Below, piece after piece: positions 1,216 through 18,549 of a DNA stretch of 53,426 nt; positions within the stretch are counted from its first letter, which is position 1, and each line of letters begins with the position of its first letter. Source of the stretch: a virus (taxonomy: Duplodnaviria > Heunggongvirae > Uroviricota > Caudoviricetes); IMG/VR virus record IMGVR_UViG_2541047798_000005. The stretch is one strand, 5' to 3'. The notes under the pieces were generated by a model. It was not told the DNA's origin and did not search any database. It saw nothing but the letters and a program-made list of their open reading frames with translations. The position numbers and the translations under genes are program-made.

Positions 1216-1385
1216 TAGCGGTACATAACGCCACGCCCGGTCCCAAGTACGTCAACCGGGTCGGGGAACGGAGTTCCGTTCCGTTCCCATTTTTTACGCC
1301 ATAAGTAAAACGTTCCCCTGCTAATTCCCCCAAGCATCCGGCAGATGGCAGGGCGACTAAGAAGGATTGTCCCGGTTTTATCCAT
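1155..1385 (-). CDS. xis: Excisionase / AlpA-family HTH DNA-binding protein
   Basis: 76 aa; segment LSRPAICRMLGGISRGTFYLWRKK...FPDPV resembles AlpA/Xis HTH; convergent with int and overlaps its 3' end by 60 nt; TAATG coupling with upstream gene. Confidence 0.55.
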   Translation of the reverse strand: MDKTGTILLSRPAICRMLGGISRGTFYLWRKKWERNGTPFPDPVDVLGTGRGVMYRYQDVMQFFDRIGLTSAKDNT

Positions 1386-2047
1386 TATTTATCCCCCGTG
1401 TATTCAACGTGTCCGATACATCCATCAATAATAGCTTGCGCCATATTGCGATAATCGCACGAAAAATCATTGTCGTGGTTAAAGTCAATCTCTTTTGCCG
1501 CGTCTTCACCCATAACATTGACAGCAAGTGCAAGCGCGATTTCAGCAAGTGCCTTTTCTTTCGGATCTATATGCAGCTTGAAAGAGCATGTTGTCCATGA
1601 TAGCGGCCTCTCGCCACAAAAATCTTCCTTGCTTTCACATATAGCCCATTTATCACCAACATATTTAAACCTGACGACATCAAGAATAGTTCCACTTGTC
1701 AAACCTACGCAATCAAGCCACACATTAACAGGAGGCTTATCACCTACGACCCATTCCGTTTTTTCTTGTTGTGTTTCGCAGTCACGGCGTTCATCTTCGA
1801 TTAATCCATCAATAATTTCACTTTCTTTATTCATGCCGTCATCATCCTTGTTAGATAAATTAGCGTATTTATCAAATTTCCAGCTTGCCGCCATAACTGA
1901 ATAAGTGCCGCGAGTATCAGCGCGGACGCCAACTAAATAGCATGATCCAAAATTGTATTCCGTGCGGCATGTTGTTACCTCAAACGATGGGTAAACATCA
2001 GGGTTAGTGCGATGACGAATTATGCCAATTACTCTTGATTCACTCAT
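1385..2047 (-). CDS. Hypothetical protein
   Basis: 220 aa from ATG at 2047 with GAGGA RBS; no recognisable motif. Confidence 0.5.
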   Translation of the reverse strand: MSESRVIGIIRHRTNPDVYPSFEVTTCRTEYNFGSCYLVGVRADTRGTYSVMAASWKFDKYANLSNKDDDGMNKESEIIDGLIEDERRDCETQQEKTEWVVGDKPPVNVWLDCVGLTSGTILDVVRFKYVGDKWAICESKEDFCGERPLSWTTCSFKLHIDPKEKALAEIALALAVNVMGEDAAKEIDFNHDNDFSCDYRNMAQAIIDGCIGHVEYTGDK

Positions 2048-2062
2048 TTTGTTTATCCTCAA

Positions 2063-3682: not shown

Positions 3683-5104
3683 TTAAAAAGATGCGTTATT
3701 CTGGTTGTTTCGTGGTGAGAATCGGCTTGCAGACGGACGTTGTTGCATTGACTGGATGCAAGCTGACGCCGCGCGGGCCTGGTCGCATGGTAAGATGTTG
3801 CCGTTGTCGTCAAACCGCTGGTAAACAGTCCCCGTTTTCCCGTGACGGTTTTTCGAAACAATGATCTCCATATATTCGCGGGCAACAGACTGTTCATCAT
3901 AGTACCCGTCGCGGTAGACCATGATGATCCGGTCTGCGTCCTGTTCAAGATTACCGGAATCACGCAGATCAGAATTGTTCGGGCGCTTGTTCGGTCGTTC
4001 CTCAACGCGGCGGGATAATTGCGCCAGTGCCAACACTGGTACGCGCAATTCTTTCGCCATCATCTTCAACGACCATGACAATTGCCCTACAGCGAGATCG
4101 TGACGTTCTGCCTTAGCCAGCTTCATTAACCCGATGTAGTCAATCATTACCATACCCAGGTTGGGATAATCCTGCTTCATTCGTTCAGTTGTGGCGCGTA
4201 TTTCCTCGACAGTTAACTGTGATGCATCAACAATCCACACATCGAGATCAGCAAGTGCGCTCATTCCCTGGGCAACGTGCGCCCATCCTTCGTCATCCAG
4301 TTTTACCGGATTACGTAAGCAATCCGTTGACAAGTTCCCTGCGCCAGCGATAGCGCGTTCAGTCATCTGATCGAGCGACATTTCAAGCGTGAACAACAAA
4401 ACGCCGACCCGCTGACCTTCTCCGCCAGGGTATTGGCGTTCAGCAGCCGCGCGGGCAATTGCCAACGCCAACGCCGATTTACCAGACCCTGGGCGTCCGG
4501 CGATAAGCACCAGATCAGTAGCGTTAATGCCGCCTAACATTTCGTCGAGTGGGTCAATCCCTGTTTTGATGTTGTCAGAGTTCACGCCACACTCCATGCG
4601 TTTACTTAGCACTTCCGTGTATTCCTGGACAGCATCGCGCAACAGCACCGGGATAATCTGATCTTTTGTTACCTTTAATTTTGAATACCGGGAATCAAAA
4701 TCTTTCATCGTCTCTTTGACGACCTCAAGTGTCCCAGTTTCCAGTTTGTAGCGCATATCGTCGATGAGTTCCAACATCTGCCGCCGCTGGTGCTCTTCAC
4801 GTAGTAGCTGTGCATATCCCTTCAGGTTGGCAGCAGAAGGGCACGATCGCGCCGTTTGCATTAGCGGTACAAAGTTTTCATTACCAATCTCATCACCAAC
4901 CAATAACGCGTCGATAAGATTCCTGTTTCTGGCTTGCGCCCGGATAATTTCAAACGCCCGCTTATACAGCGGAATAGTGAACACTTCAGGATCTAGCGTA
5001 GCGAGAACATCTTGCGCGTTAGGAGTGAGGCCGCCTAATAGCAGCCCGCCGATAACTGACGCTTCACGTTCCTGCAGTAGTGAGTTTATCTGCTCAGTTA
5101 CCAT
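3683..5104 (-). CDS. Replicative DNA helicase, DnaB family
   Basis: 473 aa; Walker A GRPGSGKS, DnaB C-terminal RecA-like domain with characteristic N-terminal domain; GGAGG RBS. Confidence 0.9.
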   Translation of the reverse strand: MVTEQINSLLQEREASVIGGLLLGGLTPNAQDVLATLDPEVFTIPLYKRAFEIIRAQARNRNLIDALLVGDEIGNENFVPLMQTARSCPSAANLKGYAQLLREEHQRRQMLELIDDMRYKLETGTLEVVKETMKDFDSRYSKLKVTKDQIIPVLLRDAVQEYTEVLSKRMECGVNSDNIKTGIDPLDEMLGGINATDLVLIAGRPGSGKSALALAIARAAAERQYPGGEGQRVGVLLFTLEMSLDQMTERAIAGAGNLSTDCLRNPVKLDDEGWAHVAQGMSALADLDVWIVDASQLTVEEIRATTERMKQDYPNLGMVMIDYIGLMKLAKAERHDLAVGQLSWSLKMMAKELRVPVLALAQLSRRVEERPNKRPNNSDLRDSGNLEQDADRIIMVYRDGYYDEQSVAREYMEIIVSKNRHGKTGTVYQRFDDNGNILPCDQARAASACIQSMQQRPSASRFSPRNNQNNASF

Positions 5105-5122
5105 TATGTCATTACCTCCGGT

Positions 5123-6241
5123 TTACAAAATGGAATATTCAGGGTAATAAACAAAGCGCCCGATCTCACCATAATCCTGGCTGTAAATAATCACCGCTGC
5201 CATACGACGTGACCGCCAGCCGCCATTAGTTGAGTAAGCGTCTTTACCCGCTAACGTGCCGTGATACTCAACAACGCCTAACGATGATTCAATTAGCCGT
5301 TGATGATGCCAGTGCCCGCAATGAGCGTAAACCGCCGCAGACTTGCCAAAGTCTTCTCGCCAGTCAGAGACGCAGGCAGACAACAAATTTTCAGGTTTTT
5401 TGATAGTATGACCGTGATGATATGCAAGGAATGTTTTGCCGTACTGTGTGTGGTGGACGATAGCAGGGGACACATCAACAGTTACGCGCGGTTCATCTTC
5501 GTAAAAAGCCGCCAGCGCCGCACGTAGCCAAATCATGCCAGACTGATCGTGATTGCCTGATAGTACCTGGATTTCAATATCCTTATGATTTAACAACATC
5601 TTTCCTACCGCCCGACGTACCGCTCGGATCGCTACATAGACAAGTTTTGCATAGCGTGAATCGCAATCCAGTACGTGATTGCTTGATGGCGTAACTGGCA
5701 ACAGCCCGTCAGTGTGAAGAACATCCCCACCGAGAAGCAAAACAGCTTTTTCAGACATCGGCGCAGCGCCCACCGCGTAGTCAAAGAATTCATTCAACAC
5801 GCGTTCAGCGATCCCAGTGTCGTAGCTCTCGCCGCATTCAGCTTTATGAGCAAGCGCCCCGATATGCAGATCAAATACCGGATAAAGGGCCAGGCTTTTT
5901 TGAAAATCAATTTCAGGCACTGGCACGGCCTCCGCGCGTGGTATTTCTTCCGTGAATGCGTCGCGGGCAGCTTCCATTAGCCTTTCCATTTCATCACGGT
6001 CACGGGCAGTTTTAATCCAGCGCATGACCGTATTACCAGCCTTATCGACAAGAACAGATTCACCAGTAACGCCAAAACCAGGCGCGCGACGCGTTGATAT
6101 TAAACCGCGTTTCGCCAGTTTTGCGCCTAGCCGCTCGACGTTGCGTTTTGACATGCCATATTTTTCAGCGATCTGCTTGTACGTTAAACCGTTGTTATAT
6201 TCAGCGATCAATTGCTCATCGCTGATTTTTCTTTGCGACAT
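5123..6241 (-). CDS. N-terminal HTH domain fused to calcineurin-like metallophosphoesterase
   Basis: 372 aa; N-terminal HTH (LTYKQIAEKYGMSKRNVERL); phosphoesterase motifs DLHIG, GGDVLHTD, GNHD, HHGH, GHWHH. Confidence 0.6.
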   Translation of the reverse strand: MSQRKISDEQLIAEYNNGLTYKQIAEKYGMSKRNVERLGAKLAKRGLISTRRAPGFGVTGESVLVDKAGNTVMRWIKTARDRDEMERLMEAARDAFTEEIPRAEAVPVPEIDFQKSLALYPVFDLHIGALAHKAECGESYDTGIAERVLNEFFDYAVGAAPMSEKAVLLLGGDVLHTDGLLPVTPSSNHVLDCDSRYAKLVYVAIRAVRRAVGKMLLNHKDIEIQVLSGNHDQSGMIWLRAALAAFYEDEPRVTVDVSPAIVHHTQYGKTFLAYHHGHTIKKPENLLSACVSDWREDFGKSAAVYAHCGHWHHQRLIESSLGVVEYHGTLAGKDAYSTNGGWRSRRMAAVIIYSQDYGEIGRFVYYPEYSIL

Positions 6242-6274
6242 AATGTTATTTCCTCATGTTTACATTTTGTATAT

Positions 6275-6997
6275 TTATTGACAGCAAACAATCTCTTTAT
6301 ATGTTTCTTCTACCATGTCGAATACTTCCGGCCTGTAATAAAAAAATTCAGTGCTACCATCAAACTTAACAGGGAAGTTTATTTTATAGTCACTGAAAGC
6401 ATCGTGCATTTTGCTTTCTATTTCCTGCATAATCTCAGTAGGCCCATTCCATGTTTTAACTACCTGTAAATCAGTCAGCCTTACACCTGCCTTACGAGCA
6501 CTTTTAAATACTCTGTTCCTCCTTTCGTTCTCTTTTACGCTTACACCAATTTTCATTTGTGTAGGCACTTCAAGATCATCAACCATGATGTAAAGTTTTC
6601 CGTTGTAGTGTGATAAAAACCCGTATTTAGCGCATTTCGGGCAACCGCGCCCGCTCTTAATGTCTCTAGGTTTAGCCGACCACTCATGATCACAAACCTT
6701 GCAGCGGCATAATACTTTTATTTTGTCGCCGGTAATTTCCCCAAGCACTTCAATATCAGGATTAACCTTAGCAATAGCCGATATTTGTTCTTCATGCGAT
6801 AACTTCATATTCCCAGCGCATTTCTGGCAACCACGTCCATATTTAATATTGCTAGGTGTAGCCGACCATTCATGGTTACAAACTTTGCAGCGACATAATA
6901 CTTTTGTACTGTTATTAACAATTTCCCCTAACACTTCAACATCAGGATTAACTTTCGCGATAGCTGCAACTTGTTCTTCATGTGTTAACTTGCGCAT
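6275..6997 (-). CDS. Duplicated zinc-ribbon domains fused to a T5orf172-like (GIY-YIG-related) domain
   Basis: 240 aa; two 63-aa repeats each with CRCKVC...GRGC.KC; C-terminal GKLYIMV...KIGVS...IESKMHDAF...GSTEFF pattern. Confidence 0.55.
   Translation of the reverse strand: MRKLTHEEQVAAIAKVNPDVEVLGEIVNNSTKVLCRCKVCNHEWSATPSNIKYGRGCQKCAGNMKLSHEEQISAIAKVNPDIEVLGEITGDKIKVLCRCKVCDHEWSAKPRDIKSGRGCPKCAKYGFLSHYNGKLYIMVDDLEVPTQMKIGVSVKENERRNRVFKSARKAGVRLTDLQVVKTWNGPTEIMQEIESKMHDAFSDYKINFPVKFDGSTEFFYYRPEVFDMVEETYKEIVCCQ
6629..6985 (-). repeat. Intragenic tandem duplication (about 189-bp unit, two copies) encoding the two zinc-ribbon repeats
   Basis: Protein repeats are near-identical; the DNA copies are clearly related (e.g. 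around 6735 versus 6921). Confidence 0.6.
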
Positions 6998-7136
6998 CGC
7001 TCCAACTCCTTAAGAACATCATGCGCGCTACAACGCAAAAACCCACCGCGACACCCGTTTGCACAGGTTGCAGTGTCTTATTGCGTCAGAGACGCCATCA
7101 GGTGGCTAATTTTCGATTTACAGAATGGTAGGTAGG

Positions 7137-7371: not shown

Positions 7372-8424
7372 TCAAAGAACGCCAGCGCGCGTATCACGTA
7401 GCGTTTTTGGTTTAAGCAGGAAATCAAGTGTCGCGGTGAAGCCATCGCCGAAGTAAAAATCTGAAGCCGTGTTTTTGAACGTTTCGAAGTAGGCGACAAA
7501 GCCGTTAATGCTTTTGTCTTTCAGGTAGTCAGTGAACGCATAGATCTTGCGTTCAAGATCCCGATCCAGTTCGGCAGGTGGTAACAGGCCGTCAAACGTG
7601 CTGTTAAATGCTTCCACCACGTCGGCAGCGTTTACAGTGGCTGACAGTTTGCGCCATTGTTCAGCATCAGTCAGATACCCATCAAATTTAGTTACCCGGC
7701 AAATGTTGATAGGCTTAGGTACTCCACCACGGCTACGCCATTGGGTTAAAGCCCACTCAATTACTAACGTGATCTCATTCTCCGTATACGCTTTACGTGT
7801 TTTTGTTTCTGTCAGTAGTTCTACGAATGGCTTAGCATCACGACATTTGCATCCTGCCTTGTCGTTGTAGAAGGCAAGGCAACGCAATGCCGCTTCGTTT
7901 ACGCCATCCTGATTGACCATTTTTTGTTCATTTTCGACAATACACGAAGTGTATATATCTTTTTCTCTTTCTTTTTCTACTTCTAATTCTAATTCATGAC
8001 CCTTTCCTGACCCGGTCATGACCCTATCATGACCTTTTTGTGTTGGATTGATTAACTTTTCTAATTTTAATTGCTCCTTCGCTGTGTTTATGGCGGCCCT
8101 GTAAGCGCTTTTAGAAGTCATTGATTGGTCCAGCCTTTTCAATAACTTTAAACAAGTTATGTGGCCTTGAGAACATTCAAACAAACCAATTTCGATGAAG
8201 TATTTCATCATTTCTTCTATACGTTTTTCAGTAGATCCGACGTTTCGCGCAATTATTCTTGCGTCATGTCGTAGGTCAAAAGTTAGATTGTGCTGATCTA
8301 CGTCATAAGTTATTAGTTCTAGGCAATACCAATAAAGCCCGTACCCTTCCAGGCCATAATCTAACAAAACGTTTTGAAGTTTTTCATCGCGGTTCGCATC
8401 GCTGTCATGCTTAAACCACTTCAT
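7372..8424 (-). CDS. Replication initiation protein with phage replisome-organizer-type N-terminal domain
   Basis: 350 aa; N-terminus MKWFKHDSDANRDEKLQNVLLDYGLEGYGLYWYCLELI typical of replisome-organizer / DUF4373-type N-domains; sits where lambda O would be. Confidence 0.65.
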   Translation of the reverse strand: MKWFKHDSDANRDEKLQNVLLDYGLEGYGLYWYCLELITYDVDQHNLTFDLRHDARIIARNVGSTEKRIEEMMKYFIEIGLFECSQGHITCLKLLKRLDQSMTSKSAYRAAINTAKEQLKLEKLINPTQKGHDRVMTGSGKGHELELEVEKEREKDIYTSCIVENEQKMVNQDGVNEAALRCLAFYNDKAGCKCRDAKPFVELLTETKTRKAYTENEITLVIEWALTQWRSRGGVPKPINICRVTKFDGYLTDAEQWRKLSATVNAADVVEAFNSTFDGLLPPAELDRDLERKIYAFTDYLKDKSINGFVAYFETFKNTASDFYFGDGFTATLDFLLKPKTLRDTRAGVL

Positions 8425-8427
8425 AGA

Positions 8428-8685
8428 TCATCCCTCCGGCAACATCACTACATAGACATCACTGAATGCATCAAGACGACAAACAAATCCTTTATCCATT
8501 AACGCGGCGAAGGCATCATGTACCGTATGAACAGGAAGTTCACACATTGCGGCTACTTCTTTGCGTGATGCATCATGTACCCGTCCTTTGTTATCTGCCT
8601 TTTCAGCCAGAGCCATTAAGACAAGTTTTTGAATCGGGCTATTAAGTTTTACGTTCCATGCTTTACTAATCATGTTCATACTCAT
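8428..8685 (-). CDS. Cro/CII-like small HTH regulator, first gene of the minus-strand early operon
   Basis: 85 aa from ATG at 8685 with AGGAG RBS; predicted HTH; divergent from cI-like gene. Confidence 0.55.
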   Translation of the reverse strand: MSMNMISKAWNVKLNSPIQKLVLMALAEKADNKGRVHDASRKEVAAMCELPVHTVHDAFAALMDKGFVCRLDAFSDVYVVMLPEG

Positions 8686-8794
8686 CGCATTTTCTCCTAT
8701 GGTTAGAGTGAACGCGCGGGCGGGCATCCCATTAGCATTAGATAGCAGTGACTGACCGCTCAACAGATCCCGCCGTTGCGTGATATTTGTTTTT

Positions 8795-10575: not shown

Positions 10576-11220
10576 ATGGTGAAAACAGAGTTACATAAAA
10601 AGCTATGGACGATTCAGCAAACGCTGAACGCGCCGAAAAATCAGCGTAATAATTTTGGTGGATATAATTACAGGTCGGCGGAGGATATTTTAGAGGCGGT
10701 TAAACCACTGCTTCAAAGTATTACGCTGACTGTAAGCGATGAAATTGTCCTGATCGGCAATCGCTATTATGTGAAAGCTACGGCGACGCTAAGCGACGGT
10801 GAAGACGAAATAGCGGTAACGGCTTACGCCAGGGAAGAAGAAAGCAAGAAGGGAATGGACGCAAGCCAGCTAACAGGTGCGACATCAAGTTACGCGCGAA
10901 AATATGCTTTGAACGGTTTATTCTGCATTGATGATGCGCGAGATCCTGATACTGACGCATACGCTAAGCAGACAGGCCAGCAGCCTCGCCAGCAGAAAAA
11001 CCCACCAAAACAACAACCACAGCAGCAGAAAGCGCCGCCAAATCCTGATGAAGTATTAGCACGTTTCTGTGATGCAGCAGCGAAAGCGCAGGACGCTAAC
11101 AAGCTGCGTGAAATATTTGGCAAATGCTGGAAATTACTACCGGAAGGATCGGAACATCGAATCAAGGCAAAAGATGTTTATGACATCCGGGTAGCAGAGC
11201 TTAACGGGGAGATGGGTTAA
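10576..11220 (+). CDS. erf: ERF-family single-strand annealing recombinase
   Basis: 214 aa; NFGGYNYRSAEDILEAVKPLL... typical ERF N-domain; Q/P-rich linker. Confidence 0.8.
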   Translation: MVKTELHKKLWTIQQTLNAPKNQRNNFGGYNYRSAEDILEAVKPLLQSITLTVSDEIVLIGNRYYVKATATLSDGEDEIAVTAYAREEESKKGMDASQLTGATSSYARKYALNGLFCIDDARDPDTDAYAKQTGQQPRQQKNPPKQQPQQQKAPPNPDEVLARFCDAAAKAQDANKLREIFGKCWKLLPEGSEHRIKAKDVYDIRVAELNGEMG

Positions 11221-11624
11221 TGAGTTTAAATTCAATCACGCTGGGCGGGAATATCGGTAATGATATGGAGGTTCGCTACACACAAAACGGGAAAGCGATT
11301 GGTAGTTTTCCGTTAGCTGTAACGAATGGCTACGGCGATAATAAGCGGACAATGTGGGTCACTTGCCTGGTATTTGGTGAGCGTGCGGAAAAATTAGCGC
11401 CACATATCCGCAAGGGTGGAAAAATAGTGGTAAGCGGTCGCCTGGATGTTCGGCAATATGACCGGAACGACGGCACGAAGGGAACGGCGGTAGAAGTGGC
11501 GGTTAACGAATTTGAATTCATGAACGTTAACCAACAAGGCCAGCAGCAGAAAGCGCCTCCGCAGCAGCAGAATAATAACGGGAATAATCCGCCGATGGAC
11601 TTTGATGACGATATCCCGTTTTGA
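11220..11624 (+). CDS. ssb: Single-stranded DNA-binding protein
   Basis: 134 aa; OB-fold region, Q-rich linker, acidic C-terminal tail DFDDDIPF. Confidence 0.9.
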   Translation: MSLNSITLGGNIGNDMEVRYTQNGKAIGSFPLAVTNGYGDNKRTMWVTCLVFGERAEKLAPHIRKGGKIVVSGRLDVRQYDRNDGTKGTAVEVAVNEFEFMNVNQQGQQQKAPPQQQNNNGNNPPMDFDDDIPF

Positions 11625-17348: not shown

Positions 17349-17525
17349 ATGTCTTTTGATGATTACCAATGGCATGACGACTATGAACGAGAAAGCGTCA
17401 TGCGTGCAATGTGCAATGTATGCAGCACGAAAAAAGGAGAATGTAACGAGTACAACGAATGTGTAGATCACTCGCTAAGGGCCGGACACGCCGAAAGGCT
17501 GAACGAAACAGAGAATCAAAAATAA
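17349..17525 (+). CDS. Small Cys-containing hypothetical protein (58 aa)
   Basis: Not in ORF track; ATG with GGAGAG RBS; follows an inverted-repeat motif pair. Confidence 0.4.
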   Translation: MSFDDYQWHDDYERESVMRAMCNVCSTKKGECNEYNECVDHSLRAGHAERLNETENQK

Positions 17526-17539
17526 TTGGGGTGGTTTTT

Positions 17540-18145
17540 ATGCAAAACCCTAAGAAACCAATAAGACGCCGTTGCAAATGCTGCGGCGTTTTTTTTGAGC
17601 CTAAATATCACAATCAAACGTGGTGCAGCGACGAATGCCTGGAAGAACTGAAATTTGACCAGTTATGCCGCGACCGTGAGAAGGCTATGAAGGCTATGGA
17701 ACGGAAGAAACGCCGTGATAGCCAGCGGGAAGAACGCAACCGGAAGCGGAAGCAGTTAAATCCGCGTAGCTATTGGTTAAAGCAGGCACAAGCGGTATTT
17801 AATGCCTATATCCGCGAACGTGACGCGCGGTTGCCGTGCATATCCTGCGGGACTTACTACGGTGAGCAATGCGGATACGATGCGGGGCATTACAGGACGG
17901 TCGCCGCCGCCGGACACCTTCGCTTCAATGAAGATAACGTCCATAAACAATGTAGGCACTGCAATCAGACATTAGACGGAAACATACAAGCCTATCGCCC
18001 AGCACTGATTCGAAAAATTGGCCTCGCCAGGGTGGAAGCGCTGGAGAACAACAATGATACGCATAAATGGACGATCGCAGAATGTAAGGAGCTAATAAAC
18101 ATCTATCAGGCAAAATTGGACGCCTTAAGGAGAAAGGCAGCATGA
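17540..18145 (+). CDS. ninG: NinG/Rap recombination protein
   Basis: 201 aa; strong similarity to lambda NinG as recalled (RRCKCCG..F.P....Q.WCS.EC; RSYWLKQAQAVFNAYIRERD; HYRTVAAAGHLRFNEDNVHKQC). Confidence 0.85.
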   Translation: MQNPKKPIRRRCKCCGVFFEPKYHNQTWCSDECLEELKFDQLCRDREKAMKAMERKKRRDSQREERNRKRKQLNPRSYWLKQAQAVFNAYIRERDARLPCISCGTYYGEQCGYDAGHYRTVAAAGHLRFNEDNVHKQCRHCNQTLDGNIQAYRPALIRKIGLARVEALENNNDTHKWTIAECKELINIYQAKLDALRRKAA

Positions 18146-18549
18146 ACGAGTATACATTTAGCCTACCTTACCCGCCATCTAATAACCGATATTACCGACA
18201 TTCACGAGGTTTTCACTATATCAGCGAAGTGGGGAAGGAATACCGGGAACAAGTAAAAGACATCATCGAATTATTAAATTTAGACATTAACCTATCTTGC
18301 CGACTGGCAATCGCCATTTATGCCGCGCCGCCGGATAACCGGGTCAGAGATCTTGATAATATCCCAAAATGCCTTTTTGACAGCCTTACTTGTGCCGGAT
18401 TCTGGAATGATGATGGGCAAATCGACTCAATAAAAATTGTCCGCTGCCGGAAGGTAAAAGGCGGGCGATTGTTTATTAAGGTATGCGAACGCGGCGACCT
18501 GCTACCGGATATTAACGAATATGCGACTAATATGTGGGGTGAGCAATGA
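18142..18549 (+). CDS. rusA: RusA-family Holliday junction resolvase
   Basis: 135 aa; LPYPPSNNRYYRH...RDLDN...FWNDD... pattern matching E. coli RusA. Confidence 0.85.
   Translation: MNEYTFSLPYPPSNNRYYRHSRGFHYISEVGKEYREQVKDIIELLNLDINLSCRLAIAIYAAPPDNRVRDLDNIPKCLFDSLTCAGFWNDDGQIDSIKIVRCRKVKGGRLFIKVCERGDLLPDINEYATNMWGEQ

Follow-up and report, generated by a model that had tools for sequence, protein, structure and literature searches.

The T5orf172 homing endonucleases described by Barth et al. in 2023 (PMC10448857) use repeated CapR, DUF723 or DUF4379 zinc fingers as their DNA-binding part; the number of repeats is altered by recombination, and the genes adjoin essential genes, replisome genes included, and the borders of exchanged segments. 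Within the wider family, Odn, a T5orf172 domain protein, cleaves DNA in vitro and is inactive as an E180A mutant (PMC8263062), and the zinc finger of CapR, a related protein, binds DNA (PMC8096241). Metallophosphoesterases (MPEs) provide precedents of another kind. In the MPE of Pseudomonas putida, His81 (of the GDxxH motif) and His113 (of GNH) are essential for DNA cleavage and dispensable for the hydrolysis of bis-pNPP (PMC7826289), and the MPE Gp48 of mycobacteriophage A10ZJ24 is a toxic DNase that is required for phage DNA replication in Mycobacterium tuberculosis (PMC12287305). The locus considered here, positions 5123-6997 of a 53,426-nucleotide stretch of viral DNA (IMG/VR record IMGVR_UViG_2541047798_000005; "the window" denotes that whole stretch), brings a gene of each kind together: a zinc-ribbon/T5orf172 gene and a gene in which a helix-turn-helix (HTH) is fused to an MPE, both on the minus strand between the genes for a replication initiator and a DnaB-family replicative helicase.

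The window belongs to the mEp021-like ("mEpimmI") group of temperate coliphages, as a phage or a prophage, and the paper on the genomes of that group (PMC11893012) discusses neither gene. The two open reading frames (ORFs; 6997-6275, 240 residues, and 6241-5123, 372 residues) are where a sequence-only reading of this DNA had placed them, and what it observed about them was confirmed. Its interpretation was partly supported. It had seen an unusual pair of genes, whereas the region is two independent things: the T5orf172 gene rides on an optional and replaceable cassette, and the MPE gene is present in every relative examined. That the two might form an operonic functional pair was rejected, since the cassette is absent or replaced in near relatives, and the suggestion of a nuclease-based selfish module is right for the zinc-ribbon/T5orf172 gene. 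The reading we favor, with a probability of about 0.68, is that the T5orf172 gene is a selfish homing-endonuclease gene and that the MPE gene is a core gene of the phage lineage, encoding an HTH-tethered, Mn-dependent DNA nuclease.

The first gene (6275..6997, minus strand) encodes a free-standing 240-residue homing endonuclease of the T5orf172 family within the GIY-YIG superfamily, an assignment based on PHROG 681, Pfam and the names of its homologues. PHROG 681, labeled "endonuclease", matches the protein with an E value of 2e-45, and Pfam DUF4379 (E 1.5e-15) and CapR (E 2.7e-10) each match two stretches of it above their gathering scores. Among the close homologues, many go by the name "GIY-YIG nuclease family protein", with precomputed matches to PF10544 and PF13455 and also matches to PF14311, PF05265 and PF21817. 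These matches, PF10544 of the homologues among them, uphold the tandem zinc ribbons and the T5orf172-like domain of the sequence-only reading. The zinc-finger DNA-binding repeats, of the CapR/DUF4379 type, occupy residues 1-63 (6809..6997, minus strand; cysteines C35, C37, C40, C57 and C60) and residues 64-126 (6620..6808, minus strand; 70% amino acid identity to the first repeat), and the T5orf172 nuclease domain occupies residues 127-240 (6278..6619, minus strand). Across 33 aligned sequences the GIY-YIG-type residues Y136, K149-I-G151, R159, E194, H198 and E217 do not vary. The predicted structure has two zinc-ribbon units modeled with a pLDDT around 90, and by fold comparison the protein resembles I-TevI and SLX1.

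The 63-residue duplication within this gene is real: residues 2-64 align with residues 64-126 at 44 of 63 amino acids and 141 of 189 nucleotides. The idea that it was a recent amplification did not hold up. Between the two repeats the nonsynonymous divergence (dN) is 0.19 and the synonymous divergence (dS) about 0.95, and because that dS exceeds the values between phages (0.33-0.70), the duplication is old. It is also part of a family-wide variation in repeat number, as a regular-expression count of zinc-finger units in the 120 closest protein clusters gave two units in 26, three in 72 and four in 21. The gene as a whole is under purifying selection (dN/dS 0.05-0.11) and is therefore still functional. 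A PADLOC search found no defence-protein model satisfied by either protein of the locus; the T5orf172 protein returned PDC-S57 alone (E 0.0075, 13.9 bits), and the MPE had no matches at all.

The mobility of the gene is apparent from comparison with its sister phages. Over the 5-kb replication region, the window is 86-91% identical in nucleotide sequence to MagusPhagus, mEp515, mEp013, mEp044, mEp554, mEp010 and mEp021. BLAST breakpoints against five sister phages, together with the junction sequences and annotated relatives, delimit a 744-bp cassette (6280..7023) bearing the T5orf172 gene. MagusPhagus and mEp010 have 10 bp in place of the cassette, with clean junctions that are identical in both (…GTATATTTATT on one side and CGCGCTACAACGC… on the other). 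In the same slot mEp013 has an allele of 178 residues with a single zinc-finger unit and mEp021 an allele of 495 residues with six, and mEp515 has an unrelated gene that reads as Bro/antirepressor-like (locus L002, 4608-5351). More distant prophages have pRha/ANT genes there (loci L014, 5165-5968, and L015, 5285-5986). The slot is a general accessory-gene slot. Among complete Escherichia coli genomes, 35 have the MPE gene at 80% nucleotide identity or more, and at the sensitivity of megablast only 12 of these 35 have the cassette. In addition, T5orf172 alleles that share the slot are about 77% identical to each other in nucleotide sequence and their flanks about 90%, a gap that fits a turnover of alleles at an exchange boundary. 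It adds one more member to a kind of selfish element that is already in the literature.

The behavior of the cassette is proposed by analogy with that kind. The two tandem CapR/DUF4379 modules would recognize the DNA and the C-terminal GIY-YIG-type T5orf172 domain would cut it, the target being, as for other enzymes of the family, the allele without the endonuclease gene in a relative that infects the same cell. The cassette, with some of the flanking sequence, would then be copied into the cut genome by recombinational repair, and the gain or loss of zinc-finger modules through recombination would shift the target specificity. The cassette would be an optional passenger of the intergenic slot between the initiator and MPE genes, with no part in helicase loading.

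A different fate has befallen some members of the T5orf172/CapR family, namely domestication as repressors or as anti-satellite nucleases (PMC8263062, PMC8096241), and the window protein could be a sequence-specific repressor like the satellite CapR, or an anti-phage or anti-satellite weapon like Odn of ICP1. Besides the documentation of both kinds within the family, the position of the gene next to the initiator and a putative origin region and the purifying selection on it would agree with such a role. We nevertheless hold domestication to be decidedly unlikely. Presence in some phages and absence from others, turnover of alleles and replacement in the slot by unrelated accessory genes are the marks of a mobile passenger; where a pure repressor would not need them, the catalytic residues are intact; and the DNA-binding part is of a generic zinc-finger type, where Odn has instead captured a domain of a replication protein.

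The second gene (5123..6241, minus strand), which ends 18 nt upstream of the DnaB start, encodes a 372-residue, full-length member of PHROG 704 ("DNA repair exonuclease"; E 1.1e-138, residues 4-368 against positions 2-387 of the 390 in the profile). An N-terminal HTH (residues 8-44; 6110..6220, minus strand) precedes a binuclear MPE domain (residues ~114-365; 5147..5902, minus strand) with the five motifs DxH, GDxxH..D, GNHD, H and GHxH, which provide the seven metal ligands. In the translation these are FDLHIG (D124, H126), GGDVLHTD (D173, H176, D178), GNHD (N230, H231), HHGH (H276) and GHWHH (H310, H312). In an alignment of 42 cluster representatives, 29-57% identical to the query, D124, H126, D173, N230, H276 and H312 are invariant, H310 is kept in at least 90% and H176 and H231 are conserved; the motifs DLHIG / GDVLHTD / GNHD / GHWHH, which the sequence-only reading had pointed out, are thus invariant or nearly so. 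The query itself has no match to Pfam Metallophos at E <=0.01, so its place in the MPE superfamily rests on its motifs and its fold, a predicted alpha-beta-beta-alpha sandwich. Twelve of the 42 relatives match Metallophos at that threshold (best E 2.7e-5) and ten match Metallophos_2. The HTH is weak in the query (E ~1e-3, under the Pfam cut-offs), where the model has three helices with a pLDDT of 73-86, and significant in its relatives (Sigma70_r4_2, E 1.5e-9; GerE, E 2.4e-8). The fusion noted earlier is accordingly genuine, and since the HTH is significant in the relatives, it is ancestral to the family.

That family is large, named and uncharacterised. A tblastn search found PHROG 704 homologues in 2,048 phage records, and an exhaustive search gave 4,346 cluster representatives at 50% identity. 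A literature search for Drexlerviridae escape mutants in the MPE gene found nothing relevant. Identity to the window protein is 55-68% in the Drexlerviridae (T1-like phages) and 38-45% in the Guernseyvirinae, and there are further homologues in phages of Vibrio, Rhodobacter, Roseobacter, Campylobacter and Flavobacterium. Neither of the two architectures in the window can therefore be called unusual, the HTH-MPE fusion being that of PHROG 704 and the zinc-finger T5orf172 type being that of PMC10448857. The dN/dS of the MPE gene, 0.04-0.11, equals that of DnaB and shows purifying selection, and in the mEp021-like lineage the gene belongs to the core. Between motifs II and III the protein has a family-specific loop (residues 179-193; window positions 5665-5690 correspond to residues 184-192), in which T184 and D192 are invariant, followed by R196, likewise invariant, in the pattern TPxSxHxLDxDxRY; the loop may serve to bind substrate and have no counterpart in other phosphoesterases.

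The neighborhoods of the gene differ between lineages. It precedes DnaB in all seven mEp-like phages. In the window, MagusPhagus and mEp013, it lies directly upstream of DnaB with an 18-nt gap, and in mEp010, mEp021 and mEp515 an inserted HNH gene alone separates the two. Prophages in which the MPE is 72-79% identical still have DnaB adjacent, with gaps of ~18-30 nt, and have a replaced initiator. Outside the mEp-like lineage, annotated phage records and a check by tblastn showed no DnaB or initiator within ~4-5 kb at seven loci in five other phage groups (Drexlerviridae, Guernseyvirinae and phages of Vibrio, Rhodobacter and Campylobacter; homologues 31-65% identical). The gene closes the early operon of T1-like phages, beside the lysis genes; its surroundings in phages of Vibrio and Rhodobacter are genes for lysis or the head; and in the Guernseyvirinae (Jerseyvirus and Kagunavirus; loci L007, 4759-7694, and L013, 3771-5985) it belongs to a small opposite-strand island inside the tail module. 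Its companions on that island are one gene for superinfection immunity and another for an endonuclease or "acid phosphatase". In Campylobacter phage vB_Cj_QDYZ (locus L012, 2648-4945) a homologue of 27% identity, without the HTH part, is directly downstream of a DNA ligase gene, an order that recalls the bacterial PdeM-ligase repair operon. In these other phages most of the neighbors are DNA-metabolism genes, such as those for Dam, a helicase, ligase and HNH proteins.

The other side of the MPE gene has a slot of its own. Between its stop and the DnaB start (5105-5147) there is a second homing-endonuclease slot, empty in the window and holding an HNH-AP2-type endonuclease in mEp515 (L002, 2951-3505), mEp021 (L004, 4451-4954) and mEp010 (L005, 2916-3506). 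HNH homologues of 34-42% amino acid identity also flank the MPE gene in a T1-like phage, a Jerseyvirus and a Vibrio phage, and with such genes beside it in three other phage groups, the MPE gene is a recurrent landing place for homing endonucleases.

What the MPE does can be approached through its active site. H176 and H231 are the equivalents of the His81 and His113 of the P. putida enzyme, and these two histidines, with the rest of the active site, the affinities to PdeM and to structures in the PDB, the published MPE precedents and the family-wide fusion to a DNA-binding domain, are the grounds for proposing an HTH-tethered, Mn2+-dependent DNA phosphodiesterase, that is, a nuclease, as the most likely activity. 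PdeM is the sole MPE-type NCBIfam model matched by the family (12 of the 42 relatives, best E 2e-4). Searches of the PDB with the single protein and with two family profiles gave no significant match in the MPE part, other matches being to the HTH, and all the sub-threshold sequence matches in the MPE part are DNA nucleases (SbcD, Mre11 and MPE). Structure matches also include the DNA-directed SbcD, Mre11 and PolD DP1, and a fold search of BFVD returned uncharacterised viral phosphoesterases only. The enzyme would be expressed early from the replication operon and held on DNA by its HTH, and its substrate would be single-stranded or structured DNA, in the form of phage replication and recombination intermediates, host DNA or both.

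Several observations weigh against this joint reading of the two genes. The window protein's own matches to Pfam T5orf172 (E 5e-3) and MUG113 (E 8e-4) are under the gathering cut-offs. As regards the MPE, the PdeM matches of the relatives are weak and the query has none; its structure matches are generic to the superfamily, the top one being MJ0936, a small phosphodiesterase that is not a nuclease; and the family-specific loop, which holds the invariant T184 and D192, is modeled poorly (pLDDT <50). No Rad50/SbcC/gp46 partner was found among the early ORFs of the window or in 50 kb of an annotated sister phage, and literature searches found no assay and no biochemical or genetic characterisation of PHROG 704 members. 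Finally, the tight synteny of MPE and DnaB in the mEp-like lineage could mean that the role of the enzyme is specific to replication.

This last point raises the question of the helicase loader, the place of which the two genes had been thought to occupy. By sequence or by fold, neither protein has any similarity to the loaders DnaC/DnaI (AAA+), lambda P, DciA, P2 B, G39P or gp59, which agrees with the absence of loader features remarked upon by the sequence-only reading, and the literature on a link between metallophosphoesterases and helicase loaders yielded nothing relevant. The T5orf172 protein was rejected as a loader by a natural experiment, its gene being dispensable inasmuch as it is absent from near-identical phages. 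For the MPE, one can picture a replication factor coupled to DnaB, either a loader in unrecognised form or a nuclease that, by nicking or processing the origin, would make a site of entry on single-stranded DNA for the helicase. Its adjacency to DnaB is kept through the mEp-like phages and the 72-79% identical prophages despite the swap of the initiator, Pfam and PHROG scans recognised no loader among the larger early-region ORFs, and the protein bears a DNA-binding HTH, all of which would suit such a factor. We regard it as very unlikely all the same, given that Pfam, PHROGs, NCBIfam and fold comparison show no likeness to loader families, that full conservation of the catalytic site speaks for an enzyme and not for a scaffold, and that the homologues in five other phage groups have neither DnaB nor an initiator nearby. 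Moreover, modules of an initiator and a DnaB-type helicase of the phage's own that have no separate loader exist, e.g., gp18/gp12 of P22. For these last two reasons the very premise of a loader slot is weak. A particular form of the proposal, which we also regard as very unlikely, is that in the mEp021-like lineage an HTH-targeted nuclease specific for single-stranded DNA or for structure would nick or process the opened origin, to create a helicase entry site or to bring about a switch to rolling-circle or recombination-dependent replication. Were this so, the classical loader would in effect have given way to an enzyme whose fold has no known connection with the loading of helicases.

Two other functions of the MPE deserve consideration. 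Like Gp48, it could be chiefly a host-takeover or counter-defence DNase that degrades or damages host DNA early in lytic growth. The DNase activity, the toxicity and the replication requirement of Gp48 (PMC12287305) give this idea a published phage precedent, and it would sit well with the family being core in the virulent T1-like phages and with the immunity gene that shares the Guernseyvirinae island. Gp48, however, lacks an N-terminal HTH, with motif I already at D10, and is likened to the window protein at the level of the superfamily, and the window phage is temperate, with the MPE gene in its replication operon; we consider this role unlikely. A substrate other than DNA is still less to be expected, and to us improbable. 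Given the catalytic promiscuity of the MPE superfamily, the enzyme might act on nucleotide signals, cyclic or linear, in the manner of an anti-CBASS or anti-Thoeris protein, or on phosphoproteins, as lambda NinI/PPase does, with the HTH serving only for autoregulation or localisation. The DxH[IL]G, GDxxH, GNHD and GHxH motifs, together with H176 and H231, match the requirements of the P. putida MPE for nuclease activity, though, and the DNA-binding fusion is conserved throughout a family whose sequence affinities are to DNA nucleases only. The motifs of PPP-type enzymes (GDxHG, GDxVDRG and GNHE) are absent, and a PPP-type protein phosphatase like lambda NinI was rejected on account of this difference.

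The surroundings of the two genes are those of a mosaic early region. The minus-strand early operon runs from a small winged-helix protein (8763-8428), its first gene, through the initiator (7372..8424, minus strand; Pfam Lin1244_N with an O-like C-terminal part matching O-like PHROGs), which is the upstream neighbor of the locus, the zinc-ribbon/T5orf172 and HTH-MPE genes, and the downstream neighbor, the DnaB-family helicase (3683..5104, minus strand; Pfam DnaB_C 5e-76, DnaB N-terminal 9e-12, phrog_19), to a MarR-like protein and NinB. A scan of the operon for promoters and terminators gave counts no better than chance. The other arm of the window has a cI-type repressor, Erf, SSB, methyltransferases, NinG, RusA and a Q-like antiterminator. 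The recombination set of the window (10576-11624 and 17459-18549) comprises Erf, SSB, NinB (2239-2670), NinG/Rap and RusA, and Pfam and PHROG scans recognised no exonuclease partner for Erf in it. Neither Pfam nor PHROGs matches a 225-residue ORF (1385-2062, minus strand) that lies between NinB and the integrase. Within 7372-8763, MagusPhagus is 98-100% identical to the window over most of the winged-helix gene and the N-terminal half of the initiator, whereas mEp013, mEp021 and mEp010 cannot be aligned there; the MPE and DnaB are common to all of them. Within the initiator gene there are three iteron-like repeats spaced by 11 bp (7994-8034; TCATGACCCnnTC…) that form a partial palindrome, with AT-rich TTCTAATT repeats on either side (7981-7994 and 8059-8072). 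This set of repeats (7981-8072) is a candidate replication origin inside the initiator gene, as in lambda O.

The value of these findings is mainly corrective, in that the "unusual pair" turns out to be a selfish cassette of textbook style beside a phage gene that is common. There are, in addition, two prospects of modest value. With an empty site and alleles of one, two and six fingers, the mEpimmI coliphages are a clean natural series for relating zinc-finger number to homing specificity, and they have a second slot, for HNH genes, on the other side of the MPE gene. PHROG 704, for its part, has members in over 2,000 sequenced phages, among them entire families that serve in phage therapy (Drexlerviridae and Guernseyvirinae), and it lends itself to study through its conserved nuclease-type active site and, in one lineage, its fixed place before DnaB.

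In comparison with known systems, the MPE has the same HTH and MPE architecture as the PHROG 704 proteins annotated "putative phosphoesterase" in Drexlerviridae, Guernseyvirinae, Vibrio and Rhodobacter phages, with 65-68% identity to those of T1-like phages, and differs from them in its placement between initiator and DnaB, which is found only in the mEp021-like temperate lineage; the PHROG name "DNA repair exonuclease" is a label derived from homology. With the P. putida MPE/PdeM (TIGR04123), a Mn-dependent, ligase-associated endonuclease of single-stranded DNA (PMC7826289), it has in common the binuclear core and the two nuclease-specific histidines. PdeM is a protein of ~215 residues without an HTH, while the window protein has an HTH and no Lhr-ligase-Exo operon around it; it falls outside the PdeM clade, with no TIGR04123 match of its own, weak matches in its relatives and that operon context absent. 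Mre11/SbcD, including T4 gp47, shares with it an association with replication and recombination genes. The window protein shows no likeness to the Mre11/SbcD capping domain and no match to SbcD- or Mre11-specific models of Pfam or NCBIfam, and in place of these features has its N-terminal HTH. Gp48 of A10ZJ24 (PMC12287305) is likewise a phage-encoded, early-expressed MPE with five intact motifs, and is set apart by its lack of the HTH extension and by a host of another phylum, the two being compared at the level of the superfamily.

The T5orf172 protein shares with I-TevI and the T4-like GIY-YIG endonucleases the "beads on a string" design of a small catalytic domain and a separate DNA-binding region. 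Its domain order is the reverse of that of I-TevI, the nuclease being C-terminal; the second tyrosine of the motif is a lysine (K149-I-G), as is typical of T5orf172; and where I-TevI binds DNA by a zinc finger, a minor-groove helix and an HTH, the window protein is predicted to do so by tandem zinc fingers. The enzymes of Barth et al. (ICP1 gp174 and gp165 among others; PMC10448857) are from lytic ICP1-like, T5-like and Vi1-like phages, unlike the temperate, siphovirus-type coliphage of the window, and their identity to the window enzyme is low, about 27-34%. They have, however, the same order of parts, with N-terminal treble-clef zinc-finger repeats followed by a C-terminal T5orf172 domain, and like them the window gene is free-standing, lies beside essential replication genes at a boundary of mosaic exchange, and varies by recombination in the number of its repeats.

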